Positions 3,329 to 19,439 are shown, counted from the first letter of the stretch. The stretch is 64,000 nucleotides of DNA from Clostridia bacterium (GCA_045648025.1 JAZRNH010000059.1:13242-77241), one strand, 5' to 3'. The notes: a model not told the origin generated them from the letters alone. Numbers and translations are program-made.

Positions 3329-3988
3329 TTAAACTTTGTCTAATATAATTGCTTTATTTCCTTCAATAAACGAAACCGGCTTATACTCCCCGCCAAAAAA
3401 ATATCTATTTCCATCTGCATATCTATAAAATAAATATACTTTTGTATCTTTGTTTTCTTGTTCTATTATTTCATTACAAACAATGTTTGGAACGTGCGTA
3501 TAGGTTTTTCTTGCGTAATTAAGACTTTCTTTTTCATTTTCTAAATAATATTTAATCTTCTTATCTCGTTCTATCCAATTATCATCATATACGCCATTTC
3601 TTATTTGTGTTTTTAATAAAACAATATTTTTTTCTTGATTATAATACATTCCTTTTTGATGATTAAAATTGTTTGCCAACGCACAAATAGTTAAACTTGT
3701 TATTAAGTCCCCTTCTTTTAAATCCTCAATCTTGGTCGCTGGGCAAATATCCTCTTTATATTCGTTCATAATATCAATAGCTGTTTTTAATCCTGCTTCA
3801 TGTATTGCATTATATTGATCTTTCTTTATTGTTCTTATCGAAGGATTGTTTAAAAACTTTACAATATCTCCGTCATTGTTTAATGCTTTTATTTTTCCCA
3901 TAAAATATTTTATAGATAAATTAAAGTCTTTCCCCATTTCCTTCAACAGCAATTCTTCATTCTTTAGAATTTCATCTCTTAAACGCAT
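3329..3988 (-). CDS. hypothetical protein, last gene of the Dcm/GHKL/Z1 operon
   Basis: 219-aa ORF starting 3 nt after the upstream stop. No motif securely recognised. The C-terminal half (NGVYDDNW...KVYLFYRYADGNRYFFGGEYKPV) is beta-rich and vaguely SRA/PUA-like; this is speculative. Confidence 0.6.
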   Translation of the reverse strand: MRLRDEILKNEELLLKEMGKDFNLSIKYFMGKIKALNNDGDIVKFLNNPSIRTIKKDQYNAIHEAGLKTAIDIMNEYKEDICPATKIEDLKEGDLITSLTICALANNFNHQKGMYYNQEKNIVLLKTQIRNGVYDDNWIERDKKIKYYLENEKESLNYARKTYTHVPNIVCNEIIEQENKDTKVYLFYRYADGNRYFFGGEYKPVSFIEGNKAIILDKV

Positions 3989-3991
3989 ATT

Positions 3992-4903
3992 TTAAATTAA
4001 TCTCCTTAATTCATCAAAATCAGAATCTTTTATATTTGAGAAATCAACATCATATCTAACATTAGATATACCTTCAGGTATAACATCAACAAGTTTTGGA
4101 ATATTATTAGAATTATATAATTTTATACCTTCATACGTTTCGTTTTTATTACAATTTATTCCTTGATAATCCTCATTCAATCCCAACTTCTTCATCAATA
4201 ATTCAATCGCCAGCATTTGATTTTTGTTATCCAACAAAGCAATGGTTTGTTTACATAATTGATATAAAGACAATCCCAATTCACATGGTTTTAACTTGCA
4301 AGAAACGACAAACACATTTAAATGTTTTCTTGCAATTTGATCTTTCCCAAACGAATGAATTCTAACATCTTTGATTGTCGACTTAACTTCTAATTTTGTT
4401 TTTTCACTTAACTCAAAGTCATGCTTATTGAAAAAATCTGTATGCCAACTTTTATAACAATCAAATCCTCTTTCGTATAAGTAATTTATTAAAGATAATT
4501 CACCATATAATCCAATCTCTAATACCTTATCATGCATACTTACAACTGAAAAAATTGTTTCTAATGAATAGAATAATTTCAACATTTCGTCTGCGCTTAA
4601 TGCATTATCATTTTTTATAAATAAATAATCACACACTCTTTCAAAATGAGCAATACTGTTTTCATCTTTCTTCTTACAAATTAAAATATGATAATTTCCA
4701 ATCTCGTTTTCATTTATCTCTAAAATAATGTTATTTTTCATAAGAAAAAACTCATTTTCAAAAGATACAGATTCTCTAATATTTTCTGTGTTTCTTATCA
4801 AAATTGAGTGTCTTTTCTCTACATCAACACATACAACAACATTTTTGCCTTCAACATCTGCTTTTGTAATATTTGTAAAATATTGATTACAATTAATTTT
4901 CAT
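3992..4903 (-). CDS. PD-(D/E)XK motif protein (DUF4420-like)
   Basis: GLYGELSLINYL...HDFEL...KLEVKST gives a D...EVK nuclease signature. The ATG at 4903 has RBS GGGAGAG 7 nt upstream, and an alternative ATG lies at 4924. The gene overlaps the Z1 gene end (4893). Confidence 0.6.
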   Translation of the reverse strand: MKINCNQYFTNITKADVEGKNVVVCVDVEKRHSILIRNTENIRESVSFENEFFLMKNNIILEINENEIGNYHILICKKKDENSIAHFERVCDYLFIKNDNALSADEMLKLFYSLETIFSVVSMHDKVLEIGLYGELSLINYLYERGFDCYKSWHTDFFNKHDFELSEKTKLEVKSTIKDVRIHSFGKDQIARKHLNVFVVSCKLKPCELGLSLYQLCKQTIALLDNKNQMLAIELLMKKLGLNEDYQGINCNKNETYEGIKLYNSNNIPKLVDVIPEGISNVRYDVDFSNIKDSDFDELRRLI

Positions 4904-7040
4904 AGTCAAACTCTCCCGTAACATACTTTGTTGTTCTACTATCGTATGGATAATTGATTGTTAAAAAAGGTACCAAATTGTCTTTTTCTTCTTTATTTGT
5001 GTAAACATAATGAACTTGAATATTGAGTTTGTTTTCAAATACACCTTTATCACCGACATAACCATTTGTAACCTGATAACTTTCAGGAAGTTCCTTAATT
5101 GCCATACCATTAGACATTGTACTACGATATTGATTTTCTCCATCTCTCATTTTAACTAATGTGAAAGAATCGGGGATTAAATCTGCTTTAACAGAATCTA
5201 TTAGAGATTGAAATACATATCTATTAATATTTGTACACTCATAAGGAAAACTCCATCTTTTTAACACTTTTTCATAAAAATCTAGTAATGAAATATTCTC
5301 ATAATATTTATGAACATGTTCATTATTTCTCCCATAAAAATATGATTGCGGATTTCCTAAGGTTTTAAAATACTCTTCTAAAATTTGATAATTGTTTTTA
5401 TATTCTTTATCACTTGCATAACTTAATGAACGATCATAAGTATATCCAGCATTAATCTCGCCTAAGGTTACTGTTTTTGAAATTGTCTTTCTGGTTAAAA
5501 TTAACTTCTTATTACTTAAAACAAACACCCTTTTCATTTTTTGCATAGGCTGACCAGTTTTTAAAAAGTTTCTAATTGTTTGCCATAAATAATTTTCATG
5601 ATTATTAATATCAACAAAATACCTTTTCATTTCTTGAGGCATATAAACCTTACATAAATCTAAATAATTTTGTTTATAACCAAACCATCTTGCACGTTGC
5701 AAAGTATTATCTACAGGGTTTTCTTTTGCAGTTCTATAAATATATGTAACAGCTAAGTTTTTTAAAGTTATACCTCTTTCTAGCATATTTCCGCCAACAT
5801 ATATTTTATATTTGTAAAATTTATCCATTCCAATATCTTGCGAGTCGTTACTACCTTCTTTTGTATTAATTTGGTACACTCTTGTTTTATTTAAATTTTT
5901 CTTTATTACAACATACAAATCATCAAATGGCGGAAAGTAATTTGAATCCGTCACCATTTCTTCTTCGTAAATTTGTTTAAATTCATTATATAAATCATCA
6001 TATCCAAGAGAACAATCATCAGAAATAACACTTGTAATTGAGTCTAACTCATTTTTTACTTTATCGTAAATAATGTTTTGAACTGCTGTGCTAGATGATG
6101 GATGCACTAACATACTATGTGCACTTGTATCACCTCTTAAGTACCTAACACCACATCCCAAAATAAAATATTTTAAAGCATCACAGAATGATTTTGGTAC
6201 ACCCAATTTGAAGTTTTCCGTATCATTTGCTTCTTCAACTAATGTGTTTTCCATTGTATCATGAAATACATTTGCTCCTGTATATCCATTACCAGGTTCT
6301 ACCAATACACAGTCATCCGGAGAAAGATTATCTAGAGCTGTAGATAGTAATAAATTTGATTGAGGTGTGGCTGTAACAGACAAGTAGGTTCCCCTCTTGA
6401 CAAATTTTACACAATTTAAGATTGCTTGACTTACGGCTTTGGGTCTGTTTTTTGCTCCAGGAGAATATTCATCACCCTCATCATCGACAATTAGTGAAGG
6501 AACATCTGATAATGACGAAGTCAATTGCTCCAAGTTTGCCAAATTTGATTCACTTGTTTTACTTTTGTGCTTTAACACCATTAAAATAACTTTGCAACCA
6601 CAATTAATTCTTTGCTTAACTTCTCTAGCATCAGCATTGTTGATATCCATAATTAAGATATCATCATTATTAGAAAACTCTTCTAAAATTCTATCTTTGT
6701 TTTGTGATAAAAGATTGGTTTTTGTTCCACCAATAACATATGCTATGTCATAACCATTATCAAATGCAAGGGCTATTGTGCTTATGAAAAAAGATGTCTT
6801 ACCGCTTTGAACTTTACCAAGACATAATAATTTATTCATTTTTTCATATGGGCTAGTTGGCGAAACAAACTTTAACAACGCTTTCGTTGCATTTGAAAAA
6901 ACATTATTAAGATTTGTTTCTGACCAAGACTCTTTCATGTGTTCACAAAGGGTCCTTTTATAAGGACCGTCTGTAATAACATTTGTAATGTATTTACATT
7001 CATTAGCTTCAACTTGCTCGTTTATAACAGTTTCTGACAT
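4893..7040 (-). CDS. Z1-domain P-loop NTPase
   Basis: Walker A LGKVQSGKTS and Walker B LIVDDEGDE. The size (715 aa) and the position next to a GHKL ATPase and a C5-MTase are as I recall for Z1 family proteins. Confidence 0.65.
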   Translation of the reverse strand: MSETVINEQVEANECKYITNVITDGPYKRTLCEHMKESWSETNLNNVFSNATKALLKFVSPTSPYEKMNKLLCLGKVQSGKTSFFISTIALAFDNGYDIAYVIGGTKTNLLSQNKDRILEEFSNNDDILIMDINNADAREVKQRINCGCKVILMVLKHKSKTSESNLANLEQLTSSLSDVPSLIVDDEGDEYSPGAKNRPKAVSQAILNCVKFVKRGTYLSVTATPQSNLLLSTALDNLSPDDCVLVEPGNGYTGANVFHDTMENTLVEEANDTENFKLGVPKSFCDALKYFILGCGVRYLRGDTSAHSMLVHPSSSTAVQNIIYDKVKNELDSITSVISDDCSLGYDDLYNEFKQIYEEEMVTDSNYFPPFDDLYVVIKKNLNKTRVYQINTKEGSNDSQDIGMDKFYKYKIYVGGNMLERGITLKNLAVTYIYRTAKENPVDNTLQRARWFGYKQNYLDLCKVYMPQEMKRYFVDINNHENYLWQTIRNFLKTGQPMQKMKRVFVLSNKKLILTRKTISKTVTLGEINAGYTYDRSLSYASDKEYKNNYQILEEYFKTLGNPQSYFYGRNNEHVHKYYENISLLDFYEKVLKRWSFPYECTNINRYVFQSLIDSVKADLIPDSFTLVKMRDGENQYRSTMSNGMAIKELPESYQVTNGYVGDKGVFENKLNIQVHYVYTNKEEKDNLVPFLTINYPYDSRTTKYVTGEFDYEN

Positions 7041-7047
7041 ATTTTAC

Positions 7048-8538
7048 CTACTTTACACTTCTAATTATAGAGTTTATTATGCTTAAAATTTTATAAGCAT
7101 CTGAATTTCCATTGTTTTTAGATGTAATAATCGACACACATACCGTAATTGCCATTTTTTGTAAAAATTCAAGGTTGCTTTTTGTTTTTCCCAATCCGCT
7201 AAAAAATTCCAAACCATAGTTTATTGTTAAATCATATTCTGATGGTTGATTCTTTGTATGTATTTTAATCCAATCATTAAAATCATTATTTTCAAATTTT
7301 ACATTAAATACATAGTGTACACCTTGAACATCAATTTCAACAGGCTCAAACTCATCTTCTCTAACAGCGCTATCAATTGAATTTTTTAAACTTTGAGAAA
7401 CTTCTTTTTCAATTTCTGAATCAACAACTGTATTAACTATTTGCTCTATTTTTGAATTATCAATAGATTTAAATGATTTATTAATGTTGTTAGCAATCTG
7501 TTTTTTATTTTCTTTTGATATTGGTTTGTCTTCTTTTCTTAACTCTGAAGACTTGGCAATGATTGCACCTGCTGCGCTTTTCAATTCTTCAATAAATCTA
7601 TCTTCTACATCCCCTTCCCACATCAATTCATCTTTTGTGTAAGAAGGCTCCCAATTATCACCCTTTAAATTAACTTCACCTATAATTCTTTGGTAAGGAT
7701 AAAGGTTTGGTTTCCCAACCAATTTTGTTGGTCTATAATGTATTTTAATTGCCCTACCTTTTCTAAATAAAGTTAATCCTGAAAATTCAGTATCGGCTGT
7801 TGCTCTTATACCAACCCAACCATCAAATGAATATGCCTTACCCTCAACTTCAAATTGTCTTTCAAAAGTTGTCATATATGCACTACCGGTTGATTGATTT
7901 ATCCAAAGTTCAGGTTTTTGATATTTAATTGGCTCTTTATTAACTGTCATAACTAATTCTTCGTTTCTAATATCTAGCGAATACATTTCTGATAACGATC
8001 TGATTAAAGAATTAATTTTATTGGCACTTATTTTTTTGTTAAGAATCTCAATTTTAATAATTGTGTAATGTTCATTTTCATCACATTCTTCTTTTGTTGC
8101 GGTAACTGCTTCTGGTGAATTTCTTGTAATTTCATCCACGTCAACAACAGCTTTATATTTATTTTTTGAACCAAACATTGTTGTTTCAACCGACCATAAA
8201 GAACCTAGGCATGTAGCAGAAGTTTTTAACCCCATTCCCTTTTCGCATCTTCCAGAGGTATCTTCTGGTGGAGAATCTAATTTTAAAGCCCTCTTAAAAT
8301 CTTCTATCTCCATGCCATACGCATTGTCATAAATTTTAATATATTCAGGATATATTTCAATATTTATGTGACATTTATGTTGTCCAATTGCAGCCAATTC
8401 TTTTTTATGAGAAATAAAACTTTGTGTTGAATTATCAATAAATTCTGCAAATGCATTTTCAATTTTATATGATTGATTTTTATATGTTCCTAAAATACTT
8501 GACCCAGGTCTAATATTTACTAAGAATTCTTCTCTCAT
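7048..8538 (-). CDS. GHKL (HATPase_c_3 / MORC-MutL-like) ATPase
   Basis: N-box AFAEFIDNSTQS and G-box EKGMGLKTS. The start overlaps the MTase stop (TCAT at 8535-8538 on the + strand, which is ATGA on the coding minus strand). Confidence 0.65.
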   Translation of the reverse strand: MREEFLVNIRPGSSILGTYKNQSYKIENAFAEFIDNSTQSFISHKKELAAIGQHKCHINIEIYPEYIKIYDNAYGMEIEDFKRALKLDSPPEDTSGRCEKGMGLKTSATCLGSLWSVETTMFGSKNKYKAVVDVDEITRNSPEAVTATKEECDENEHYTIIKIEILNKKISANKINSLIRSLSEMYSLDIRNEELVMTVNKEPIKYQKPELWINQSTGSAYMTTFERQFEVEGKAYSFDGWVGIRATADTEFSGLTLFRKGRAIKIHYRPTKLVGKPNLYPYQRIIGEVNLKGDNWEPSYTKDELMWEGDVEDRFIEELKSAAGAIIAKSSELRKEDKPISKENKKQIANNINKSFKSIDNSKIEQIVNTVVDSEIEKEVSQSLKNSIDSAVREDEFEPVEIDVQGVHYVFNVKFENNDFNDWIKIHTKNQPSEYDLTINYGLEFFSGLGKTKSNLEFLQKMAITVCVSIITSKNNGNSDAYKILSIINSIIRSVK

Positions 8539-9743
8539 TTATTCTCCTCCACAAAGTCAACAAATTGTTTAAAGACATTATAAATAACATCAACATTAAC
8601 AGCATTTCCAAATTGTTTATAAGCCAATCTCATGTTGTTATCAATTTTAAAATCCTGTGAGAAACTTTGTAAATTTGCTGTTTCTCTTGGTGTTAAATAT
8701 CTTTTATATTTGCCAACAATAGGAACATGCACCATAGCAACAAGCGCAGGAAATTCTGTTGGTTGTTTTACTCTAACACCAGATGGTCTAAACTGAATAA
8801 TTCCATCAAAAACAGAGTCTATCATTCCATTAACTTGCCACTCAAATTTTCTGTGCGTCTTTTTGATATCTTTTAATTGATTGTTAGCAGTATACCATTT
8901 GTCAATAAATTCTTTATTTTCTTCATACAATTCTTTGTTCTTTTGAACAAATTCTTTTTTCCATTGAGGAAATTTAGAAGTATCAGTCTTTTTATAAAAT
9001 TCATCGCTCCAAATTGGGAACCCAATAATTTTTCTTTTTATACCTTTTATAAAATCATCCCAAAGTTTTAAAACTCTTTCCTCATAATCTGTAATCTTAA
9101 ATGATTGCAATTTATATTCTTTTGTATTCTTTGTCATTAATACGCTGTCAATAGAACAAGTATTTTTTTGTCTTGGCGGAATTGAAATTTTAATCTCTTT
9201 ATTAAAATAATCATTTTTTACTGCCACAATTACAGCTCTTTCTCTTAACTGTGGAACCCCTAGATAATGAGGACTTACAATCATTGGATTTTCAATAACA
9301 TTATAACCCAAATTTTTAAGTTCCTGCCTTATTCGTATCCAAGTATTTCCCTTGTCGTGAGAAACCAAATTTCTAACATTTTCAAGAATTACATATCTAG
9401 GACTACCATACATAAGATTATGGTATTGTAATATTCTTACAATATCAAAAAACAAGACACCTCTAGCATCTTGGAAACCTTTTCTTTGTCCCGCTTTTGA
9501 AAATGATTGACATGGGAATCCAGCACAAAGAACGTCAAATTCAGGGATATCCTCTGGGTTAACCTTTGTAATATCACTATAAGCTTCAATATTATAATTA
9601 TTTTTATAAGTTTCAGCTGTTTCTTTATTTATTTCTGAGGCATATACGCATTTGCCACCCAATCTTTCCATTGCTTGGTGAAAACCACCAATACCAGCAA
9701 ATAAATCTATAAATTTAAATCCATTATCAAAAAAACTATTCAT
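8535..9743 (-). CDS. dcm: DNA (cytosine-5)-methyltransferase
   Basis: Motif I FIDLFAGIGGF, motif IV GFPCQSFS, motif VI ENVRNL, motif X QFGNAV. Confidence 0.92.
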   Translation of the reverse strand: MNSFFDNGFKFIDLFAGIGGFHQAMERLGGKCVYASEINKETAETYKNNYNIEAYSDITKVNPEDIPEFDVLCAGFPCQSFSKAGQRKGFQDARGVLFFDIVRILQYHNLMYGSPRYVILENVRNLVSHDKGNTWIRIRQELKNLGYNVIENPMIVSPHYLGVPQLRERAVIVAVKNDYFNKEIKISIPPRQKNTCSIDSVLMTKNTKEYKLQSFKITDYEERVLKLWDDFIKGIKRKIIGFPIWSDEFYKKTDTSKFPQWKKEFVQKNKELYEENKEFIDKWYTANNQLKDIKKTHRKFEWQVNGMIDSVFDGIIQFRPSGVRVKQPTEFPALVAMVHVPIVGKYKRYLTPRETANLQSFSQDFKIDNNMRLAYKQFGNAVNVDVIYNVFKQFVDFVEENK

Positions 9744-9746
9744 TTG

Positions 9747-10310
9747 TTATTCTGCCTTATTATTATCTATATAATTATCTAAAAATGTTTCAAAATATTC
9801 TGGTCTGAACACCCATATCTTTTGATCAGAACATGTCGTTTGCTCAAATCCTTTTTTATATCCATCTTGCAAATCTTTCACTTCCACATAGCAAGATCTA
9901 TTCGTATTATGACTTATATAACGATATGCATTCCACGCAACCATAATTGGATTATTGTCAAAGTTATAATAACCAAGGATTACTAAAACCTCAGTGTCTG
10001 TTGTATCAATGTAATTGTCAATATTGTCTTTTCTAATATTTGTTACTTGCACTCTTCTAATATGTGGCTTACCTGCCCAACCAGCACCAGTAATATTTTT
10101 TAAATATGTAACTATTCTATACCTTTTATTATTTTTTTCCAAAACAAACTCATAAGGAACACGTTTCGTATTAACTCTTTCTTTAATAACAAAACCATTT
10201 ACAGAAACAAATTCTTCAAATTTCTGTAATAATTCCCCTTTTTCATAGACTTTTTCAGGCTTATCGTAAACTAAATTATTTGCTTTATCAATATTGATAT
10301 ATTGAACCAT
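9747..10310 (-). CDS. hypothetical protein, first gene of the Dcm/GHKL/Z1 operon
   Basis: 187-aa ORF with RBS AAGGAGAA; its stop lies 3 nt before the dcm start. Conserved-looking patch NITGAGWAGKPHIRRVQV. Possibly a methylase-associated DNA-binding or nuclease component, but not recognised with certainty. Confidence 0.6.
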   Translation of the reverse strand: MVQYINIDKANNLVYDKPEKVYEKGELLQKFEEFVSVNGFVIKERVNTKRVPYEFVLEKNNKRYRIVTYLKNITGAGWAGKPHIRRVQVTNIRKDNIDNYIDTTDTEVLVILGYYNFDNNPIMVAWNAYRYISHNTNRSCYVEVKDLQDGYKKGFEQTTCSDQKIWVFRPEYFETFLDNYIDNNKAE

Positions 10311-10350
10311 CTTGCTTTTTCTCCTTAGTTAAGCATAAATTTCCAACTAC

Positions 10351-10359
10351 ATTATAACA
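10351..10359 (-). promoter_or_regulatory. extended -10 element (TGTTATAAT) for the six-gene operon
   Basis: The minus strand reads TGTTATAAT about 40 nt upstream of the 10310 start. The -35 is poor. Confidence 0.35.
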
Positions 10360-10476
10360 TACTTTTCTGATTTTTGTATAAAATTACAAAATAAATATAA
10401 TTTATTTTTAGAAAATACTTGCAATTATCACTTTAAAGAGTTAAAACACACACCAACTATTTAATGTGAGGTGTTT

Positions 10477-10713
10477 ATGGATAACAAAATTTTAGCAGAA
10501 ATGATCAAAGAAAAATACTATGAAGAAAAGATGACTGCAGATTACAAACTTCAACTCAATAAAGTTGTTGAAATGGAAGACAAATTTCTAAAAGACTTTT
10601 CAAAAAACAAATGGAAAGAATATTTATATTTAGACATAGAAAAAGGTCAACTCCATTCACTTGAAGTTGACCAAATTATTGAGTTTGTTATTAAATTTTT
10701 ACTTAATCCTTAA
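10477..10713 (+). CDS. small hypothetical protein (78 aa), the only plus-strand gene in the island
   Basis: The ORF-track start is GTG at 10471. An ATG at 10477 follows GAGGTG. The protein is helical and charged, with no HTH motif recognised. Confidence 0.5.
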   Translation: MDNKILAEMIKEKYYEEKMTADYKLQLNKVVEMEDKFLKDFSKNKWKEYLYLDIEKGQLHSLEVDQIIEFVIKFLLNP

Positions 10714-10738
10714 TTATAAATATTTAATGAACAAAATA

Positions 10739-11920
10739 TTAAAACTTGAATTTCTTTTTGTAATCATTTTCTAGAGCGATACAAGCGCTATAATTAAAAT
10801 ATTCTCCCTGCTTATTAAAATTTTGTTTTATCTCTTCAGAATCATTAAATCTATTCATAAATTTTAATAAAGATATCAAACAAATAAAATCATCAGCAAA
10901 AATTCCCGCAAAAGTCTTATTCCAAGAAGTATTTAAATCGCAAACAATATATTTTAATTTTTTATACAAATTAAGTTGACTATCTGTCAAATTAAACCAC
11001 TCGGAAGATAATAATGTCTTTTTTATATTATTTGTATCTATTGGATGCATTGATTTGTTTATTGACTTCAATAATTTGCTTATAAAACCAGCAAACATAT
11101 CTGCCACACGAATCCCAAAGCATAGCTTAGAATCTTCGTCTGATACATTTTTTATTCCTACATTTTTAGCGGACATAACAGTTTTTTGAGAATCTCCCTC
11201 TCTATCAATAATAAGACTATAATTATCAATCGAATTTTCTTCTAAAAAATGTTTAAAGCCGACAAATGGGGGATCATAATTCCAATTTAATGTATTAATA
11301 TTTTCAATATCATCAAGCAAAAACAATATTTGCCTAAAAGACTCATTTTCTCTTTCTTTTAACACTAGATTAACTTGATTTTTCTTCATTCTTTCAATAA
11401 AAAATTTTCTTAAAGATCCTATTATATTGTCAGGTTTGTTATATATGCTATCAATAACATTTTGTGGTTTATAAATAACTAACGCTTTAACTATTGAGTA
11501 TTTCATTGAATTGATATCTACAAACAAATTACTTTTATAATTTTTAAACAGCTGATTAATTATAAATTCTATTTTGCTAAACGTTGAAACATAAATAAAT
11601 ATATCTTCTGATAAAAAATCTAAAAAGTCATTTATAAAACCTATATTGAATTTTGAAATTGAACGAAATCCATTGATAAAATAGTTGCTTTTAAAAGAAT
11701 GACTTTTTAATTCTCCTTCTTGTTGTCTTTCTATGTATTTCATTTCAAAATCTTTATATTTTTTACAAATAGAATCTTCTTTATCAGATTTCCACCCAAC
11801 AATTACTGTAATAAAATTATCATAAAAATTATCAGCCGTTATTGTGTCATACCCTATTTGTCTACTATGCTCTGACTCATCATAATAAAATTTATATTTA
11901 AAATCCGTTTTTGTTATCAT
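10739..11920 (-). CDS. DUF3800-like protein
   Basis: N-terminal FYYDESEHS and C-terminal IRVADMFAGFI resemble the two conserved DUF3800 motifs (from memory). RBS GAGGAG. The gene starts 15 nt after the upstream stop. Confidence 0.45.
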   Translation of the reverse strand: MITKTDFKYKFYYDESEHSRQIGYDTITADNFYDNFITVIVGWKSDKEDSICKKYKDFEMKYIERQQEGELKSHSFKSNYFINGFRSISKFNIGFINDFLDFLSEDIFIYVSTFSKIEFIINQLFKNYKSNLFVDINSMKYSIVKALVIYKPQNVIDSIYNKPDNIIGSLRKFFIERMKKNQVNLVLKERENESFRQILFLLDDIENINTLNWNYDPPFVGFKHFLEENSIDNYSLIIDREGDSQKTVMSAKNVGIKNVSDEDSKLCFGIRVADMFAGFISKLLKSINKSMHPIDTNNIKKTLLSSEWFNLTDSQLNLYKKLKYIVCDLNTSWNKTFAGIFADDFICLISLLKFMNRFNDSEEIKQNFNKQGEYFNYSACIALENDYKKKFKF

Positions 11921-11935
11921 AATCTCCTCTAATAA

Positions 11936-12559
11936 TCATCCTTGTTCTTCATTTATTTCTTCATTATTAGAAAAATTAAGTATTAAATGAAATACTTTAA
12001 ATTTGTTTTCATTGTTATCAATTTCTTCCGATTCAGCAATAAAATTAAACTTATATTCCATCGATAAATTATTAAAATTAAATTTATCATTTAATCTATT
12101 AAATAATTTACAACTATCACCACTTTCAACAAAAGATATCATTCCCGCACAATCATAAGGAATTGGATATTTGCCAGAAATAAATCTGTTCAAACCATTT
12201 TGAACATATTCAGCATTAATATGAGATGCACAAATTTCATTTTTTAGAAATCGTTTACACTCAAATGTAATACCCTCATCTGTCATAGAATCAATAAAAA
12301 CAGTAATATCTGTTCTCCCCAAAGTCATCCCTGTTTCTTCATCAAAAGGCTCTAATTGAGATATGACATGATCAAAGTTAAACTTTTTCTTATGATTACG
12401 AATTTCTTTAATTAACAGATTTCTTCTTTGATCTTCTAACAAAATTTCATCTTGTGCATTTATGGACATTTTCTTATAAGAATATATAATTAAGTTAATA
12501 AAATTTTCCAATAAATTTATTTTTATATCATTTACTAATTCAAAATTAATATTATTCAT
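11936..12559 (-). CDS. small PD-(D/E)XK nuclease-like protein (candidate restriction endonuclease)
   Basis: GRTDITVFIDSMTDEGITFECKRF gives D...ExK. The start overlaps the MTase stop by 8 nt, and RBS GGGAGG lies inside the MTase 3' end. Confidence 0.55.
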   Translation of the reverse strand: MNNINFELVNDIKINLLENFINLIIYSYKKMSINAQDEILLEDQRRNLLIKEIRNHKKKFNFDHVISQLEPFDEETGMTLGRTDITVFIDSMTDEGITFECKRFLKNEICASHINAEYVQNGLNRFISGKYPIPYDCAGMISFVESGDSCKLFNRLNDKFNFNNLSMEYKFNFIAESEEIDNNENKFKVFHLILNFSNNEEINEEQG

Positions 12560-15482
12560 TATTTCCTCCCATTAGAAGGATTTTTTCAATTTTGGAAAAA
12601 TCAAGATAAGCAACTGCCTCTTGCCAATTTTCTTCTTTTTTATTTTTTATAATAAATACACCATCTGTAAAAGTTCCGATAAAATTTTTTCTAAGAGCGA
12701 TATTATTAAATAATTGATTTATTGAAGACATTTCGTATGTTTTTAAAATTAATTCAAGTAAACGTTGTAAATCTGTTTTATTTTCTTTTTGTGAAAACTC
12801 AAAAAGTATTATCTTGAAAAATTTGCCTTCATAATAATTAACATACACATTATATTTCTTTGGAATTAACTGTTTTATTAATTTTTTAAGAGTTTTGTTG
12901 TAAACATTTGTTGAATCAACAATCTCATCCATATTTTTTTCTTTTAAACAATATTTCAATGAATATTTGATAATAGCTATATCTTTATCATCCAACCCAT
13001 ACAATTTATAAACTTCTTTATTTAAAGATTCTAACAACGATATATAATTGCATGTATCTCCAGAATGTTCATATAAAAAACTAATTTGTTTTTCATTTAT
13101 GTTTTTTATTTGTAAAGCATCAAATTTTATTAATTCTTTATGTATTTTTTTAACAATACTAATCAAATTTAAAAATGAGTTTTTAGTATATACAGGTAAG
13201 GGAAAATCTTTTATACTATCCATCCTAATTTCCGGTTGTGATGTTTTATTGTAAGATGGAGCCATATGAAATTGGTAATAATTATAAATATCTGAATTTA
13301 AAATAGCTTCCAAAAACAATAACTCATCTATTCTTTCTTCATTTGTAAATATTGAATAAAAATCATTTCTAAAGAATATTTGATTATTAATAAATGCACA
13401 CTCTGGTCTTTTATCTCTAATAGACCTTTTAATTAATAATTTGTATTTGCAAAAATATTGCTCTATATTATGCAATCTTTCAAATCTGTAAACTGTATTG
13501 TTAGTTAAATTATCATAATCAATCTTGAATCTTGAAAAACGACTAGACTCGCAATGTTTTAAATCTAAAAACTCTTTATTTTCTTTGTCCCCAGCTGAAT
13601 ATCCCTGAGATATCTTAAGATTATGTTTTAGAATATATTTATCTATCGTAAAACCATTTTCTCTTATTAAATTTATTAGCTCAAAGTCTAATTTATTTCC
13701 TTCATGCAATATAGACCATATATAATCATACTTTTTCATTACCTTTGAACTAATTTGTTGAGCATTTGATTTATCAAATGCAATTTTATTTTGCAATACA
13801 TCTATAAAATCTTTTTCTATATTAATATAATCACATAAAGACTCATTTTTGCTTTTTAAAACGTAAGTTATAACGGAACAAGGGTATTTTGCATTTTGGA
13901 AAAGACTTGCTCTAAGTCGTTGTAAATTCATAATTTCAACTATTGAAAAATGCTTAAACATTTCTTTCCTAAATCTATTAGCTAATGAATTATATAAAAT
14001 TCCATTCGAAATTAATATTGAAGCTACACCATCTTCTAATAAAAAATCCTTAGTTCTCAATATAAATGATTGACATAATTGCGAATCTGAAATTACATCC
14101 TTATGATTTACATCTAGATATTTTTTACAATCTTCAGTCAAGATGCTTGACCAAGGCGGATTACCAATAATTAAATCAAATTTTTGATCAAAAACAAGTT
14201 TTTCACTAAAAAAATCTTTACAATTTAAATTATTATTCAAATCAGGTAAATATATTTCATTTTCCTCTATATCTTTAGGATTAAAACAATCTAAAAGTGC
14301 AATATATAGACTTATTCTTGTAATTTTTAATGCCTGTGCATTAATATCTACACCGAAAATACTTTCCTTCAAAATAGAGATTAACTTCGCATGACTTCTG
14401 CATGTTTGTAATGACACCAATTTTTTAAAACATGATACCAAAAATACTCCCGAGCCACAAGAAGGATCAAGAATTCGATATGATTTTTTTAAAATTCTGC
14501 TTTGAATGTTTTCTATCATTGCATTTGCTAAAAAATATGGAGTATAGAAGGCTCCGTTATTTTTCTTAGCAACAATATCCTCCTCAGATAAAAATAATTC
14601 ATAAATATTACTTATAAGTTCTATTGGTATTATACTGAAATCATATCCATACAAACATAATTGCCCTGTATTTAGTTCCGTTCCATTTAGAAAATCAATT
14701 ATAATATCTGCTTCATATTTTTCTAATAATGAAGAATTATTATAAAAAATATTTCCTTTAAACTTATTTTCTAAATACATTAAAAATTCATTAAGGTTTT
14801 TAGAAACTAATATTTCCTTATAATCTTTCACTCCAAACTTATTATAAGTTTTTTCTGTTAAAATTTTTCTGTCTTCTAAATATTTTATAAAAATAGATTT
14901 AGATAAGATATCATGCGCATTATCAAAAGAGGTTCCTTTTTCACACAAAAGTCTAAGAGCTGCTTTTATATTTATTAAAAGTTTTTGATCAACCCTATCG
15001 GAACTTTTTACTATTTTTTCGCAAGCTTCGATAAATTTACCATTAATTAAATTTTCATATTTTAATAAGATAAAATCTAACTTCCCTCTTTTTTCTAGAG
15101 AATTTAAAAATTTAAACCCATCCTTAATGCTAAAATTGTTATTTAAAATAACATCTGTTGGAGTTATGAACAACGATATTGGTATGTTATTTCTATTCCA
15201 AAGTATTCCTCTCAACTGCCTAATTTCATTCGGATCATTTCTTTTAAAACATTTTATTCCCAATATTGCAGTTTTTTCTATATCACCAACTCTTGCAATT
15301 TTAACAACAAAATCAAATATATCATCAGAAACAAGTTCTATTTCCTCTTTATTCTTTAGGTCCAATATTTCTAATAATGTATTTAGTTGATCTTCTATTT
15401 TCAAACTTAATATATTTTTTAATTTATCTCTTAAATATTTTTCATCTTCAATAAAATAAGATTCTTTCATATTTTTTTCCAT
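12552..15482 (-). CDS. gamma-class N6-adenine DNA methyltransferase with large N- and C-terminal extensions (Eco57I/PglX-like layout)
   Basis: Motif X GAFYTPYFLA, motif I ILDPSCGSGVFLV and motif IV IIGNPPWSS, in the order X-I-IV. 976 aa. No clear nuclease motif in the N-terminal ~300 aa. Confidence 0.85.
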   Translation of the reverse strand: MEKNMKESYFIEDEKYLRDKLKNILSLKIEDQLNTLLEILDLKNKEEIELVSDDIFDFVVKIARVGDIEKTAILGIKCFKRNDPNEIRQLRGILWNRNNIPISLFITPTDVILNNNFSIKDGFKFLNSLEKRGKLDFILLKYENLINGKFIEACEKIVKSSDRVDQKLLINIKAALRLLCEKGTSFDNAHDILSKSIFIKYLEDRKILTEKTYNKFGVKDYKEILVSKNLNEFLMYLENKFKGNIFYNNSSLLEKYEADIIIDFLNGTELNTGQLCLYGYDFSIIPIELISNIYELFLSEEDIVAKKNNGAFYTPYFLANAMIENIQSRILKKSYRILDPSCGSGVFLVSCFKKLVSLQTCRSHAKLISILKESIFGVDINAQALKITRISLYIALLDCFNPKDIEENEIYLPDLNNNLNCKDFFSEKLVFDQKFDLIIGNPPWSSILTEDCKKYLDVNHKDVISDSQLCQSFILRTKDFLLEDGVASILISNGILYNSLANRFRKEMFKHFSIVEIMNLQRLRASLFQNAKYPCSVITYVLKSKNESLCDYINIEKDFIDVLQNKIAFDKSNAQQISSKVMKKYDYIWSILHEGNKLDFELINLIRENGFTIDKYILKHNLKISQGYSAGDKENKEFLDLKHCESSRFSRFKIDYDNLTNNTVYRFERLHNIEQYFCKYKLLIKRSIRDKRPECAFINNQIFFRNDFYSIFTNEERIDELLFLEAILNSDIYNYYQFHMAPSYNKTSQPEIRMDSIKDFPLPVYTKNSFLNLISIVKKIHKELIKFDALQIKNINEKQISFLYEHSGDTCNYISLLESLNKEVYKLYGLDDKDIAIIKYSLKYCLKEKNMDEIVDSTNVYNKTLKKLIKQLIPKKYNVYVNYYEGKFFKIILFEFSQKENKTDLQRLLELILKTYEMSSINQLFNNIALRKNFIGTFTDGVFIIKNKKEENWQEAVAYLDFSKIEKILLMGGNNE

Positions 15483-15509
15483 ATAATATTCCCTTATGTT
15501 TTAAAATCA

Positions 15510-16559
15510 CTATTCTGTTCTAGTATAATAAGTCAACTTGCGTTCTCCGTGTTTTTCAATTAGATTATGGTCTAACAATTCTTTTAAGCATCTTTCAATT
15601 GTTGTTTCTGATAGTGTAGGACACAATGCAACGATATCTGCTTTTGTAAATTTGCCAATTTTTGTTTTAATGATATCTTGGACTTGAGTTAATGCTTTTG
15701 ATTTCTGTTCAAGCAAAATATTTGCTCTTGTTTCAAAGTCTCTATATGCCTTCAAAATTACTGACAACATATATTTGATAAACTCAGTTGGATTATTTGT
15801 GTTGTCTGACCAATTTGTTGAACTATATTGCAAAGCATCATAATATCTGCCTTTGGTTTCTTCAATAATTTTTTCAATAGAAATAAACTTTCCAACATTA
15901 TATTCTTGCTTGTATAGAAGAAGTAAAGTCAAAAGTCTGCTCATTCTACCATTTCCATCATTGAATGGGTGAATGCACAAGAAATCTAAAATAAAGATAG
16001 GAATTAAAATTAGTGGGTCAACATCATCTTTGCTGACTGCAATATTAAACTCTTCACAAAGCCTGTCAATAGCATTAGGAGTTTCGTATGGTTCTAAAGG
16101 TTGAAATCTTACAAAAGAACTTCCATCAGATCTTGTTTCTGAAATATAGTTTTGAACATTCTTAAACTTTCCGCCAATAGGTTTTTCAGAAAACTTATAT
16201 AGGTCTCCATGAAGTTGCAAAATATAAGAACTTTTTACTGGAATAAACTCATAGTTTTCGTGAATTGTATTAAGAACATCTCTATAACCAAGAATTTCTT
16301 TTTCACCTCTATCCTTTGGTGTTGTTTTATTTTCACAAATTTGTTTAATTCTTGTGGCCGTGGTAACAATACCTTCAATCTTGTTTGAAGCTTCAGTGCT
16401 TTGAATTTTAGCAATTTCAACAAGTTTATTTATCTTTGCTTTGTTTTTAATCTCAATATTATATAACTTGCCTTTAAACTCATGTATTTGTGAAATATAT
16501 CCTAAAATCTCGTTGTCCCAAGAAACATCCTTATATTGTGAATAATTAAAAATTCGCAT
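15510..16559 (-). CDS. class II Fic-domain protein with C-terminal winged-helix
   Basis: Fic motif HPFNDGNGRMSRLL. An inhibitory-helix motif SNKIEG ([ST]xxxE[GN]) lies N-terminal to it. C-terminal TIERCLKELLDHNLIEKHG is wHTH-like. Strong RBS AAGGAG. Confidence 0.88.
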   Translation of the reverse strand: MRIFNYSQYKDVSWDNEILGYISQIHEFKGKLYNIEIKNKAKINKLVEIAKIQSTEASNKIEGIVTTATRIKQICENKTTPKDRGEKEILGYRDVLNTIHENYEFIPVKSSYILQLHGDLYKFSEKPIGGKFKNVQNYISETRSDGSSFVRFQPLEPYETPNAIDRLCEEFNIAVSKDDVDPLILIPIFILDFLCIHPFNDGNGRMSRLLTLLLLYKQEYNVGKFISIEKIIEETKGRYYDALQYSSTNWSDNTNNPTEFIKYMLSVILKAYRDFETRANILLEQKSKALTQVQDIIKTKIGKFTKADIVALCPTLSETTIERCLKELLDHNLIEKHGERKLTYYTRTE

Positions 16560-16571
16560 ATTTCATCTCCT

Positions 16572-16658
16572 TTATTGCACCATTTTATCACACTTGATGC
16601 AATAAATCAAGTTTATGTGACACTTTTATTGCATCATTTTTAATATTTTGATGCAATA
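16572..16658. promoter_or_regulatory. fic-operon promoter with two inverted-repeat operator units
   Basis: Half-sites TTATTGCA(C/T)CA occur at 16572-16582 and 16626-16636. Their inverted copies TTGATGCAATA occur at 16594-16605 and 16648-16658, so the unit is duplicated at a 54-bp offset. The minus-strand promoter is TTGATT (16605-16610), 17 bp, TAAAAT (16582-16587) with TG; unit 1 overlaps it. Confidence 0.55.
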
Positions 16659-16660
16659 CT

Positions 16661-17062
16661 TTAAAATAACCCATACTTCTTTAAGTAATGATCCACGTAT
16701 TTGCCGTGGTCGTTTTCGAAGGTGATGGCTATGGCGATGAGGTGGCGATAAGCTACGAAGGTGTTGAATTTTATGTCGGTGATTTCTTTGAACATATCTT
16801 TTCGTTTTAGCGCGTCATAGCGCAGGTTGATTTCTTCGGGGCTAACTTTTTGATTTTTGTATAGTTTCTTTGCTTGTTTAACTATGTAATCATCATATTC
16901 AGTCTTCTCTGGAACCGATTGGTCTTTTGTAGTGTTTAGTGGTGAATTTATACTATTTTGATGTATTTCAAGAGATTCTGATGTGTTTTTGTCACAATTT
17001 TGCCCCATTTCGCAGTGTTGAGAGGCCTCCATCCCGCCATAGCGGGGCTGGTTGAACCCCAC
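16661..17062 (-). CDS. hypothetical protein in a GC-shifted patch (start uncertain)
   Basis: 133-aa ORF. The C-terminal two thirds read like coding sequence (..YDALKRKDMFKEITDIKF..ITFENDHGKYVDHYLKKYGLF). The 5' ~70 nt is GC-rich with hairpins and no clear RBS. Confidence 0.4.
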   Translation of the reverse strand: MGFNQPRYGGMEASQHCEMGQNCDKNTSESLEIHQNSINSPLNTTKDQSVPEKTEYDDYIVKQAKKLYKNQKVSPEEINLRYDALKRKDMFKEITDIKFNTFVAYRHLIAIAITFENDHGKYVDHYLKKYGLF

Positions 17063-17194
17063 AATAAAATTTCAGAGATTATGTCAATTTTTTGTTTTTT
17101 ATAAAAACAACTACAACCAATAGCTCTCAATCTTAATAATTATGCTAAATTTTTGATACAATAATATAATTAGTTCAAAAAATAAAGTTACCAT

Positions 17195-17226
17195 AAAAAG
17201 GAAGTTAAATATAACTTCCTTTTTTA
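17195..17226. terminator. bidirectional rho-independent terminator
   Basis: Stem AGGAAGTTA/TAACTTCCT with loop AATA, flanked by an A-run and a T-run. It directly abuts the stop at 17227. Confidence 0.75.
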
Positions 17227-18528
17227 TTATTTTACACTAAAATATGCTTTAATTTCTTTTTCAACTTCAACAAGACTGTCAGGTTTGAGTGTTCTGGTTA
17301 TTTTATTTTCAGTTCTAACAACATCAAGCAAATCTTTGTCTTCAAGCAAATCAATAAGCTTTGCCGCTCTTGAATAACCAACAGCAAAAACTCTTTGAAT
17401 TAAAGCCGCAGAAATAAGTCCGTCATTATGATAAACAACTCTTTCAACCTTTTCGTTTAATTCTTTCATATAATTATCCTCCTCTTTTATTTCATCAAAT
17501 TCTTCATTTTCACAACCATCTTTAATTGTTATTTTTGAAATATATGGTCCATTGATTTCAACCAAAACTTCATCTTGTTCATTTGCATATTCACGATAAG
17601 TTATAAACAGTTTATAATCGTCTTCATTTAACTTTTTCAACACATCAACAACAACCATTGCACCCTTGTCATAAATCAATTTTCTTTGATCTTCAAACTT
17701 ATTCAAAATGGCAATTTTTCCAACAATTGTTTGGTCGTGAGATTCTGAATAATACACCGCATTTTCATCAAGAATTTCTGCAAGATAAATGACATTTCCA
17801 AATTCAATTGCCATTGAAATCGCAAAGAATGCTTTTTTAGAACTCAAATTTCTCAAATCATCTTTTGTTATTGGTTTAAGCTCTAGCGGAAAAACTTCTT
17901 CAACTGAGCAGCTTTTTCCACCTTCAAAATAACAAATTCCATCGTGAATTTCGTCAACCAAATATTCTTTATCAACTTCAAAACCCTCTGTATTTTTCTC
18001 AGGATTTGAAAATCCTTTATATTTCACTTTTGTTGCAACAACATCAATAAAATCTTTTGCAGGATACTCTTTAAGCTCATCAATTTCATTTGGAATCAAA
18101 TAAACATCTCTTTCTTTGTTGTAAATTGCCCTAACCCAATAATACTCATCTTTAAAAAGCTCTTTGTTGCTCTCACCTTTATATTGCACAGTTTTCTTTC
18201 TTGGAAAAACCTCATATCTAGTTTTTCCGTAAAGTCTAAGCAAATAATCCACATAATTTATAGCCGCTGTGCTAGAAAGCCCACTTCGCATACCCTTATA
18301 GATAACATAATCTAAAAGGTCTTCAAGAAACTTAAAATATTCATCTGAGCCAATTTCAATATTTTCTTCAATTTTAACAAAAATAAAACGGCAATCATCT
18401 GCTGAAAACCCAGCATACTTAAATAATTCAATCAAAAAATGATCTTTTCTTTTGTGGATATATTCTCTAAATTCTTTCACTTCTTTTTCTGAAATAGTTT
18501 CATTTTGTTTTTCATCAATAATAGTCAT
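17227..18528 (-). CDS. hypothetical protein with C-terminal FtsK/SpoIIIE gamma-type winged-helix DNA-binding domain
   Basis: C-terminus GLISAALIQRVFAVGYSRAAKLIDLLEDKDLL fits the gamma-domain consensus (S..lQR...iGY.RAA.lid.LE). The N-terminal ~350 aa is unrecognised. RBS AAGGAGAA. Confidence 0.7.
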   Translation of the reverse strand: MTIIDEKQNETISEKEVKEFREYIHKRKDHFLIELFKYAGFSADDCRFIFVKIEENIEIGSDEYFKFLEDLLDYVIYKGMRSGLSSTAAINYVDYLLRLYGKTRYEVFPRKKTVQYKGESNKELFKDEYYWVRAIYNKERDVYLIPNEIDELKEYPAKDFIDVVATKVKYKGFSNPEKNTEGFEVDKEYLVDEIHDGICYFEGGKSCSVEEVFPLELKPITKDDLRNLSSKKAFFAISMAIEFGNVIYLAEILDENAVYYSESHDQTIVGKIAILNKFEDQRKLIYDKGAMVVVDVLKKLNEDDYKLFITYREYANEQDEVLVEINGPYISKITIKDGCENEEFDEIKEEDNYMKELNEKVERVVYHNDGLISAALIQRVFAVGYSRAAKLIDLLEDKDLLDVVRTENKITRTLKPDSLVEVEKEIKAYFSVK

Positions 18529-18542
18529 AACAATATTCTCCT

Positions 18543-19439
18543 TTAGTTTTCAAATTTGTCTTTATATTTTTTAAAAAATTCATAATATATTTTTGGATTT
18601 TCAAGTTCCCACCAATTTTTTATATCAACAGGATTCGCATCAAGGTCATAAATTTTTGCAGAGTCAATACCAAGCAAAAATGGAGAGTGTGTAGCAATAA
18701 TAAATTGACAACCGCAATATCTTGAAAGTTCTTCAATAAGTTGCATTAACTCAATTTGTTTTTTGGGCGATAAACTATTTTCTGGCTCATCTAAAAGATA
18801 TAATTTGTCATTTTCAAGATGAACAATAAAATATCTTAATGCCGTTTCACCATTGCTGTCTAGTTTAAGTTCTTCACCAGCTGTTAGCCGTTTAAATTTT
18901 CTAGCAGTCATTTTCTTTTTATTTGCAAGAACCCTAAGCCTTAAATCATCATAATCAATCATTCCCTTAACTTTAACGGTTTCGTAATATCTTTTTTGAT
19001 AGAAGTCTTTTTCTGCAATTTCTCTTGATTCTGTGATGTTTTGATTATTTTCTCTGATGTTTAACATATATTCAAAAATATCATCGCTACAAATTATCTT
19101 GCTTCCATTAGGAATTCTAAGTTCTTCACCATAATCACCATAACCCATTTTGGCTTTGCACAACTTGGCAAATTCATCAAAATTTTCATTTGAATTAAAT
19201 GGCGAAGTTCTAATCAAATTTAAGTTTTCGGCAATCAAATTTAAAAGTGTGGTTTTTCCTGAACCATTGCCACCATAAAAAATGGTAATTTTGTCAAAAT
19301 CAACTTCTTTCAAATTTTTTGCAGGAAATATATCTGCCGGATAGTTTCCTCCAATATATCTGCCATTTCTATCAAATATATTGCTGTCAACATATTCTTT
19401 GTTTTGATATATAACAAACTTATCAAGCCAAATAGTCAT
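18543..19439 (-). CDS. ABC-type (AAA_21-like) ATPase, no transmembrane or nuclease domain
   Basis: Walker A GGNGSGKTT, signature-like DSNGETAL, Walker B LYLLDEPENSLSP, H-loop ATHSP. RBS AGGAGG. Confidence 0.8.
   Translation of the reverse strand: MTIWLDKFVIYQNKEYVDSNIFDRNGRYIGGNYPADIFPAKNLKEVDFDKITIFYGGNGSGKTTLLNLIAENLNLIRTSPFNSNENFDEFAKLCKAKMGYGDYGEELRIPNGSKIICSDDIFEYMLNIRENNQNITESREIAEKDFYQKRYYETVKVKGMIDYDDLRLRVLANKKKMTARKFKRLTAGEELKLDSNGETALRYFIVHLENDKLYLLDEPENSLSPKKQIELMQLIEELSRYCGCQFIIATHSPFLLGIDSAKIYDLDANPVDIKNWWELENPKIYYEFFKKYKDKFEN

Follow-up and report, generated by a model that had tools for sequence, protein, structure and literature searches.

A conserved methyltransferase–predicted nuclease pair at the core of a probable modular defence locus in a Clostridia bacterium

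The four-gene locus described here lies on the minus strand, between positions 10739 and 16559, of a 64,000-nucleotide (nt) stretch of DNA from a Clostridia bacterium (GCA_045648025.1, JAZRNH010000059.1:13242-77241), the whole of which we refer to as the window. It encodes a Fic protein, a gamma-class N6-adenine methyltransferase (MT), a 207-amino-acid (aa) protein (S207) and a DUF3800-family protein. Comparison with related loci indicates that MT and S207 are the only obligate unit of the locus and constitute, as judged from their sequences, a widespread and so far unnamed two-protein restriction–modification (R-M) module. We consider it probable, although not strongly so, that the locus as a whole is a modular defence operon, in which this obligate R-M enzyme is accompanied by Fic and DUF3800 modules that are separable from it. 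The genes are, in order of transcription:

15510-16559, minus strand: Fic AMP-transferase, SoFic type, 349 aa
12552-15482, minus strand: methyltransferase and presumed recognition subunit (MT), 976 aa
11936-12559, minus strand: predicted small PD-(D/E)XK nuclease subunit (S207), 207 aa
10739-11920, minus strand: DUF3800-family protein, short form, 393 aa

All four open reading frames (ORFs) lie where a preliminary description of this DNA had placed them, and their coordinates bear out the junctions that it gave: +27 nt between fic and MT, −8 nt between MT and S207, where the S207 start overlaps the MT stop, and +15 nt between S207 and the DUF3800 gene. Every start has a ribosome-binding site ahead of it: that of MT is AAGGGA, and that of S207, GGGAGG, lies within the last MT codons.

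Results

Conservation of the MT–S207 pair

We examined 95 MT loci, of which 15 are close to that of the window and 80 are distant. The latter were taken from species-representative genomes and cover Bacteroidota, Chloroflexota, Planctomycetota, Acidobacteriota, Cyanobacteria, Pseudomonadota, Patescibacteria, Bacillota and a methanogen. An iterated profile places an S207 homologue directly downstream of MT in 76 of the 80 distant loci, and every one of the 15 close loci has one there too; tblastn with the window S207 detects such a downstream neighbour in about 45 of the 80. The gaps between the two genes cluster at −8, −4, −1 and +7 nt, and clustering of the neighbouring genes reveals no third gene conserved across the MT–S207 family. 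The R-M-like core pair seen in the preliminary description is thereby borne out by comparative evidence.

The same comparison goes against the proposal, made in that description, of a dedicated four-gene composite. Across genomes only the methyltransferase–nuclease pair is conserved, the very outcome that the description itself had named as one that would refute its idea, and because fic and DUF3800 are mostly missing beside it, a dedicated four-component system is unlikely. In the closest MT relatives with usable contigs (47–63% identity), MT is followed with the same short overlap by a 198-aa S207 homologue, and neither a fic nor a DUF3800 gene is present. Upstream of these closest pairs lie an HKD-SNF2 helicase and a second type IIG methyltransferase, or else a HinfI system. 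On plasmids of Clostridium sporogenes and C. botulinum the pair occurs alone, and RefSeq labels its members 'N-6 DNA methylase' and 'hypothetical protein'. We know of no characterised member of this MT subfamily. A limited literature search, which is no proof of absence, returned no description of a split type IIG enzyme.

The genes that adjoin the closest pairs form a pattern of their own. The helicase (HKD(PLD)-SNF2, PADLOC C3a139/DrmD-like) and the second type IIG methyltransferase (about 1090–1330 aa) are found not only beside these closest pairs but also, one or both and in varied order, beside MT–S207 pairs in four distant phyla (in all, loci L081-L092, L004, L053, L067 and L077, with both genes in L004). 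Helicase, type IIG enzyme and MT–S207 may represent a recurrent four-gene super-system, which is not in the window.

S207 is a predicted PD-(D/E)XK nuclease

An alignment of 78 diverse sequences shows that E42, D84, E100, K102, Y118 and H191 are invariant in the S207 family, so that the E...D...ExK constellation of PD-(D/E)XK nucleases is present throughout; in the window protein the motif reads D84...E100-C-K102. This agrees with the preliminary description, which had noticed a 207-aa D...ExK protein translationally coupled to MT through the 8-nt overlap, and it supports the prediction that S207 is a PD-(D/E)XK nuclease with an intact site.

The window S207 has no Pfam, NCBIfam or PADLOC family match, and sequence and profile searches of the PDB with S207 returned nothing meaningful. 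Nine of the 78 relatives match Pfam PDDEXK_9 (best E=2.8e-6), the window protein itself remaining without a match. A structure model built from a 9-sequence alignment is poor, with a predicted local distance difference test score (pLDDT) of 51; at that quality its order of elements is compatible with an alpha-beta-beta-beta-alpha-beta core, in which D84 would stand at the start of one strand and E100-x-K102 at the end of the consecutive one. The Foldseek matches of this model, weak and non-significant, are all restriction nucleases (McrC, EcoO109I and EcoRV). A narrow profile made from 9 sequences retrieves 293 representatives of the family at 50% identity; the best 150 of these 293 are 61–254 aa long, and none of those 150 is fused to another domain.

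MT carries a nuclease-like domain with a degenerate motif

MT comprises an N-terminal restriction-endonuclease-like domain, a helical region, the gamma-class N6-adenine methyltransferase and, at its C-terminus, some 380 aa that are presumed to recognise the target. The motifs FYTP, DPSCGSG and NPPW, on which the preliminary description had based its assignment to the gamma class, are present and invariant or nearly so among 27 homologues. Pfam matches to N6_Mtase/Eco57I reach 84 and 71 bits, MmeI_Mtase is matched too, and the PADLOC profile REase_MTase_IIG (PDLC03603) aligns with residues 83-966 (E=1.5e-48). At E<=1e-10 we find 1615 homologues, most of them about 970 aa long and alignable end to end. 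Some homologues carry PF12950; the window MT has no match to a target-recognition-domain family, though its alignment to the PADLOC type IIG profile reaches residue 966.

The first 290 residues of MT are modelled with high confidence (pLDDT 91) as helices followed by a beta-beta-beta-alpha-beta-beta unit. In Foldseek the best match of this N-domain is 7lvv_D, the chain that represents the nuclease domain of DrdV, a type IIL enzyme; at E=0.058 this match is not significant; the further matches, likewise not significant, are a run of restriction-endonuclease-fold proteins. The motif that occupies the place of the active site is D57...G75-I-K77, that is, GxK instead of the canonical ExK. Among 96 homologues D57 is found in 92, G75 in 78 and K77 in 82. 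Position 84 is a glutamate in 75 of these homologues and position 91 a histidine in 86, whereas the window MT has proline and arginine there, and its close relatives lack E84 and H91 as well. In the model, the MT N-terminus is thus restriction-endonuclease-like in fold and degenerate in motif. The preliminary description had held that MT possesses no nuclease motif of its own; this is correct as regards the canonical ExK, but a nuclease-like domain does exist at the N-terminus.

A split restriction enzyme as the working model

Based on these features, we propose a mechanism in which MT would recognise the target site and methylate host DNA, while S207 would dock on MT, perhaps on its relic nuclease domain, and cleave unmodified DNA with sequence recognition supplied by MT. 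Both the enzymatic activities and the physical complex are what we infer from motifs and conservation. S207 would depend on MT for recognition because its homology is maintained between loci whose MT proteins share only about 26% identity and therefore presumably differ in specificity. S207 resembles in this respect HsdR and Res, which are likewise conserved across specificities, and differs from type IIP nucleases. HsdR and Res do not read sequence; type IIP nucleases do, and are replaced wholesale on a change of specificity.

Alternatively, MT could be a single-chain type IIG/IIL enzyme that needs no partner, its N-domain doing the cutting. S207 would then be an accessory, such as a second-strand nuclease of the kind found in heterodimeric type IIS enzymes or a helper with no part in primary cleavage. 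The PADLOC type IIG profile covers nearly the full length of MT, the N-domain folds confidently with nuclease domains as its best matches, and D57, K77 and E84, at the frequencies given above (92, 82 and 75 of 96), could form a Cfr10I-like site, in which the acidic residue is presumably contributed by the following helix. We nevertheless regard this alternative as unlikely. The glutamate of the canonical ExK is replaced by glycine in 78 of the 96 relatives, the window MT and its close relatives have neither E84 nor H91, the Foldseek matches are non-significant, and the presence of a partner with an intact PD-(D/E)XK site in 76 of 80 loci would be hard to explain. Self-cutting by MT is less likely for the window protein than for the family at large, and the split arrangement, with S207 as the nuclease subunit, remains the model that we favour.

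Fic, a probably separable defence gene

The first protein of the locus bears the Fic active-site motif HPFNDGNGRMSR at residue 197 and the inhibitory motif SNKIEG at residue 58, both as first described, followed by a C-terminal domain. Its Pfam match is 62 bits. The PADLOC SoFic profile (PDLC03963) aligns over its full length (residues 26-345, E=2.4e-41), and HPFNDGNGRMSR agrees with the HxFx(D/E)GNGRxxR pattern required of SoFic; the score against the NCBIfam SoFic equivalog NF046030 is 68.5 bits, far under the cut-off of 550. SoFic is a single-gene anti-phage system that is reported to cause abortive infection via AMPylation (PMC12249575, the Sofic/AS1 study). No AS1-like small ORF follows the window fic, and none fits in the 27-nt gap before MT.

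The closest plasmid-borne homologues of the window Fic (42–46% identity) stand alone and in unrelated contexts (loci L189-L192). Conversely, a Fic gene lies directly upstream of MT in only two of the 80 distant loci. One of these is in Blautia faecis, where MT–S207 has ahead of it, across the same 27-nt gap, a SoFic-like gene whose motif is degenerate; in the other, a Flavobacteriaceae metagenome-assembled genome, a Fic gene precedes a fragmentary MT. The homology and distribution of the gene point to Fic as a free-standing SoFic-type defence gene, an independent module whose autoinhibited product would act on its own as an abortive-infection toxin.

A DUF3800 clade that habitually accompanies restriction operons

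The preliminary description had a DUF3800-like protein close the operon, and this assignment holds up: the Pfam match (PF12686) reaches 22.7 bits with a cut-off of 21, which is marginal, and 48%-identical homologues are named 'DUF3800 domain-containing protein' by the annotation pipeline PGAP. The protein has the N-terminal sequence YYDESEHS, invariant in its clade, and R271-x-x-D274. Most of its 724 homologues are about 498 aa long and possess a C-terminal extension of about 105 aa that the window copy lacks; such short forms make up 12 of 119 homologues. A recent truncation of the window gene was considered and rejected, as a search for remnants of the extension downstream gave chance-level matches only. 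No DUF3800-associated RNA motif was found by Rfam, either in the whole window at gathering score or in 10000-17400 at E<=1.

Published models give DUF3800 an RNase H-like fold (PMC7736814, PMC10910872), and the family occurs as an accessory of type VII retrons, of Cas12a2/Cas12a3 and of a Cas13 kinase system. Given this modelled fold and these repeated links to defence, the earlier statement that the family has no assigned function is not entirely accurate.

We examined 90 loci of the window's DUF3800 clade, 80 of them from a metagenome scan. A type I hsdR or hsdS gene lies within 6 kb in 57 of the 90. An S207-family gene stands just upstream in 12, accompanied in 10 of these by MT, and is absent from the other 78; five loci have only another N6 methyltransferase nearby, and the remainder have none of these. 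The subset with at least 2 kb of sequence on both sides (n=54) can be arranged by the position of the DUF3800 gene as follows:

Directly after hsdR: 33 of 54 loci
Between hsdS and hsdR: 7 of 54 loci
After an MT–S207 pair: 6 of 54 loci
Abutting hsdS or hsdR only: 2 of 54 loci
No R-M neighbour: 6 of 54 loci

In 48 of the 54 well-flanked loci, then, the DUF3800 gene abuts a same-strand R-M gene at a distance of at most 700 nt. In the loci listed, it is typically separated by 15–40 nt from a preceding or following hsd gene and by about 235 nt from a preceding S207 gene, and the identity of the HsdM, HsdS and HsdR neighbours is confirmed by Pfam. At least four architectures occur: M-S-R-DUF, S-DUF-R, R-M-S-DUF and MT-S207-DUF. 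In the RefSeq record of Lactococcus cremoris plasmid pJM2A (L186) the order is hsdM, hsdS, xerA, hsdS', hsdS', DUF3800, hsdR. Our literature searches turned up no account that places DUF3800 within hsd loci.

Two further features of these neighbourhoods were seen. The clade's genes in type I hsd operons (L114-L185, L186) often adjoin xerA-type hsdS shufflons, and HEPN_Apea or GmrSD genes lie just beyond hsd-embedded DUF3800 genes.

Attachment to MT–S207 has occurred in a second lineage besides that of the window. Its MT is 26–27% identical to the window MT and its S207 barely alignable, the DUF3800 proteins being 56–57% identical, and it follows that related DUF3800 genes are attached to very different members of one R-M family. 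Among individual relatives of the window protein, the 79%-identical one sits after a helicase; a 56%-identical one is preceded by MT (996 aa), an S207-family protein (223 aa) and a small ORF; and a 55%-identical one comes after a type IIG gene and a Gabija-like OLD/UvrD pair. No DUF3800 homologue is present in any of the 95 MT loci.

It could be argued that the juxtaposition in the window reflects defence-island clustering only, of a SoFic gene, an R-M pair and a stand-alone DUF3800 gene, and that DUF3800 and R-M genes are shared cargo of mobile elements. The segment in which the locus lies, between tRNA-Ser and tRNA-Arg, is full of defence-type genes; DUF3800 relatives are also found after the Gabija-like pair, after the helicase and in prophage tail regions; integrases and Mob genes flank many loci; and after clustering at 90% identity, 13 of 25 DUF3800 clusters have no detected R-M neighbour, partly owing to short contigs, the other 12 abutting an R-M gene. 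Set against this are the same-strand contacts within 700 nt in 48 of 54 well-flanked loci and the four or more different architectures, and clustering alone would not predict the insertion of DUF3800 between hsdS and hsdR. We therefore judge a clustering-only origin to be rather improbable. Neighbourhood statistics instead suggest that the DUF3800 clade habitually rides on restriction operons, where, by analogy, it would be a restriction-linked accessory or back-up effector of the PrrC kind and not specific to the MT–S207 family.

The PrrC anticodon nuclease is an ABC-ATPase fused to a nuclease domain and encoded inside the EcoprrI type Ic hsd locus. The comparison with PrrC drawn in the preliminary description proves apt for DUF3800 as far as gene position is concerned, since the 48 loci that abut a restriction gene include the position between hsdS and hsdR.

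Transcription signals and the extent of the operon

Upstream of fic and downstream of the DUF3800 gene we find the following signals:

16575-16602 and 16629-16656, no strand assigned: two palindromic operators, TTGCAYCA-N12-TGRTGCAA
16582-16610, minus strand: promoter-like site from a consensus scan, TTGATT, 17-nt spacer and TAAAAT with an upstream TG
10645-10672, minus strand: terminator-like hairpin and T run, 67 nt past the DUF3800 stop, the predicted end of the transcription unit

The inverted repeats of both operators were confirmed. The operator pattern has two exact copies in the 64 kb, none elsewhere, and matched nothing in 100 shuffles; the proximal copy overlaps the −10 element of the promoter-like site. 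Of the single operator-bearing promoter proposed in the preliminary description, the operator part thus stands. The single promoter cannot be asserted because, in DNA as AT-rich as this (about 25% G+C), promoter-like hexamers occur at chance frequency, with 83 found and 85 expected, and the promoter-like site before fic is statistically indistinguishable from this background. For the same reason the transcription unit is only a predicted one. That no terminator separates the genes was stated correctly: on the minus strand none was found between 16559 and 10739, the first being that at 10672-10645. We accordingly predict from these signals that the four genes form one transcription unit. A convergent 80-aa ORF without a family match (10471-10713, plus strand) faces the DUF3800 gene; an internal ATG of this ORF is preceded by a GAGGTG ribosome-binding site, and the operon's terminator-like hairpin falls inside it.

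All four plasmid-borne Fic homologues have a palindrome of their own immediately before the start codon, perfect over 16–19 nt in two cases, and three of the four share the half-site ATCATTT/AAATGAT, which is present in the window operators too. The operators therefore probably belong to fic and travel with it, an arrangement that suggests autoregulation via the Fic C-terminal domain. The fic region would probably supply the promoter for the downstream genes.

A public protein collection contains a 606-aa S207–DUF3800 'fusion' (P0130) that was called with a TGA-sense code. The stop codon of S207 is indeed TGA (11936-11938), and the DUF3800 gene, 15 nt further on, continues in the same reading frame. 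A code-4 reading was rejected for three reasons: TGA terminates five of 54 long ORFs and interrupts none, S207 aligns end to end with its 198-aa homologues, and the DUF3800 gene has its own ATG with a GAGGAG ribosome-binding site 5 bases ahead. From these sequence features, the 606-aa protein is a gene-calling artefact.

The tight co-directional packing, the operator-bearing upstream region and the lack of an internal terminator-like site would also fit a single integrated system of all four proteins, in which Fic and DUF3800 regulate or back up restriction. Part of its order is repeated elsewhere, Fic, 27-nt gap, MT and S207 in Blautia faecis, and MT, S207 and DUF3800 in the second lineage. 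We hold such a system to be very unlikely, as the full four-gene set occurs in no other locus of the 185 examined, the closest MT–S207 relatives lack both flanking genes, DUF3800 is found in 0 of 95 MT loci and an S207-family gene is missing from 78 of 90 DUF3800 loci, and the Fic homologues are alone on plasmids, SoFic being known as a single-gene system (PMC12249575). The modular operon, in which an MT–S207 enzyme has Fic and DUF3800 modules beside it, accommodates these distributions, and cross-talk between the modules may occur within it.

Surroundings of the locus

The 23-kb segment of the window between tRNA-Ser (97-184) and tRNA-Arg (24056-24130) has nearly all its genes on the minus strand, and defence-type genes are abundant in it. 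Directly downstream of the operon lies a separate Dcm-linked cluster (3329-10310, minus strand) with a promoter-like site of its own at 10380-10351. It also holds a 219-aa ORF without a family, in addition to these genes:

9747-10310, minus strand: MTaX1
8535-9743, minus strand: C5 cytosine methyltransferase
7048-8538, minus strand: HATPase_c_3
4893-7040, minus strand: Z1 helicase-type protein
3992-4924, minus strand: DUF4420 PD-(D/E)XK protein

Upstream of fic come a 133-aa ORF, an FtsK-gamma-domain protein and a PtuA-like AAA_21 ATPase. The 133-aa ORF, with a GTG start, is contained in a stretch of higher G+C (16661-17130, minus strand) that is bounded by the FtsK-gamma gene's terminator on one side and the fic operators on the other. 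Pfam, NCBIfam and PADLOC give no match for the ORF, nor does Rfam for the stretch; the unit may in truth begin with this ORF, or the ORF may encode the operator-binding protein. The PtuA/AriA-like AAA_21 ATPase (18543-19439, minus strand), followed by the 433-aa protein with an FtsK-gamma winged helix (17227-18528, minus strand), may be another two-gene defence module.

At the far end of the segment, a 23-nt direct repeat (22/23 identical) occurs at 183-205, where it starts at the 3' end of tRNA-Ser, and again 2.8 kb away at 2970-2992. It brackets a 305-aa ORF and a DUF4379 zinc-finger repeat protein (434-1891, with internal tandem repeats of 210 nt) and resembles a duplicated attachment site.

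Discussion

The arrangement that we propose for MT and S207 can be placed between known classes of R-M enzymes. MT has the same domain order as type IIG/IIL enzymes such as MmeI and DrdV (nuclease fold, helical region, gamma N6-adenine methyltransferase, presumed C-terminal recognition region); the PADLOC profile PDLC03603 matches it over nearly its full length, and DrdV is the best, though not significant, structural match of its N-domain. It differs from these enzymes in having D...GxK in place of D...ExK, so that the window MT lacks the catalytic D...(D/E)xK that they carry within the methyltransferase chain. It also differs in almost always having a separate, translationally coupled PD-(D/E)XK protein. 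Single-chain type IIG enzymes, by definition, have no separate nuclease gene, and the pair falls outside this one-chain class. Type III (Mod/Res) and type I (HsdM/S/R) systems would share the logic that we propose, with specificity residing in the methyltransferase and a separate, conserved nuclease subunit. They differ in that S207, at about 200 aa, has no helicase or translocase module, and the pair encodes no ATPase. BREX, DISARM and MADS were considered and rejected, as MT has only weak, partial methyltransferase-domain matches to PglX, DrmMI and MAD2, and no PglZ, BrxC, DrmA/B or mad companions are found among the window neighbours.

The two flanking proteins also have recognisable counterparts. 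Fic shares with SoFic the full-length match to the hidden Markov model, the canonical Fic motif and the C-terminal domain; it differs in its score far under the NCBIfam cut-off, in lacking an AS1-like ORF and in its intramolecular inhibitory motif SNKIEG. The DUF3800 relatives occupy the same kind of position as PrrC in EcoprrI, between hsdS and hsdR or right after hsdR, on the same strand and with short gaps. They differ from PrrC in their unrelated, modelled RNase H-like fold, and in the window they are represented beside an R-M pair of another type than type I. The likeness to PrrC that we see is one of gene position; masking by an R-M complex and activation by anti-restriction proteins are features of PrrC. 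With the DUF3800 proteins of type VII retrons, of Cas12a2/Cas12a3 (TPR-DUF3800) and of Cas13 (Csx32), the window clade shares the Pfam family and the N-terminal DE motif, and those proteins are likewise recurrent accessories of nucleic-acid-targeting immune systems. The window clade differs in being partnered with R-M, in having neither a TPR domain nor a fusion to reverse transcriptase, and in usually bearing its own C-terminal extension of about 105 aa, missing in the window copy.

Several observations weigh against a modular operon built around a split restriction enzyme. The S207 model is poor (pLDDT 51), and the structural matches of both nuclease-like domains are non-significant. In MT, D57 and K77 are well conserved and residue 84 is acidic in most family members; the three may complete a non-canonical site with which MT, at least in some members of the family, cuts DNA on its own. 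Fic stands upstream of MT in both Blautia faecis and the Flavobacteriaceae genome, which is commoner than random placement predicts, and some functional tie between Fic and MT–S207 is conceivable. Fic genes tend to sit in defence islands, and the recurrence of Fic with MT is in line with that habit. A small number of gut elements, present in many copies, account for a large share of the DUF3800 loci, and the number of independent events is accordingly modest. Finally, the presence of DUF3800 behind two divergent MT–S207 pairs hints at a partnership more specific than one with any R-M system.

A bolder reading, which we put forward as a doubtful possibility, has two linked elements. MT–S207 would represent an undescribed, phylogenetically widespread R-M class made of a type IIG/IIL-like chain without a catalytic nuclease site of its own and a dedicated nuclease of about 200 aa acting in trans. 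The DUF3800 clade, for its part, would play the role of PrrC with an RNase H fold, being wired to restriction complexes of type I and of the MT–S207 kind and firing when restriction fails.

If S207 is the true nuclease, two-subunit enzymes would be hidden in hundreds of loci whose present annotation is a single-chain type IIG enzyme or an orphan methylase with a hypothetical protein, and the annotation of defence systems would change. The pair would also offer a natural nuclease module that is separable from a programmable methyltransferase-recognition scaffold, with possible use in enzyme engineering. As for DUF3800, the members of its clade that are embedded in hsd loci on plasmids of culturable Lactococcus would provide a tractable system for learning the role of this domain.

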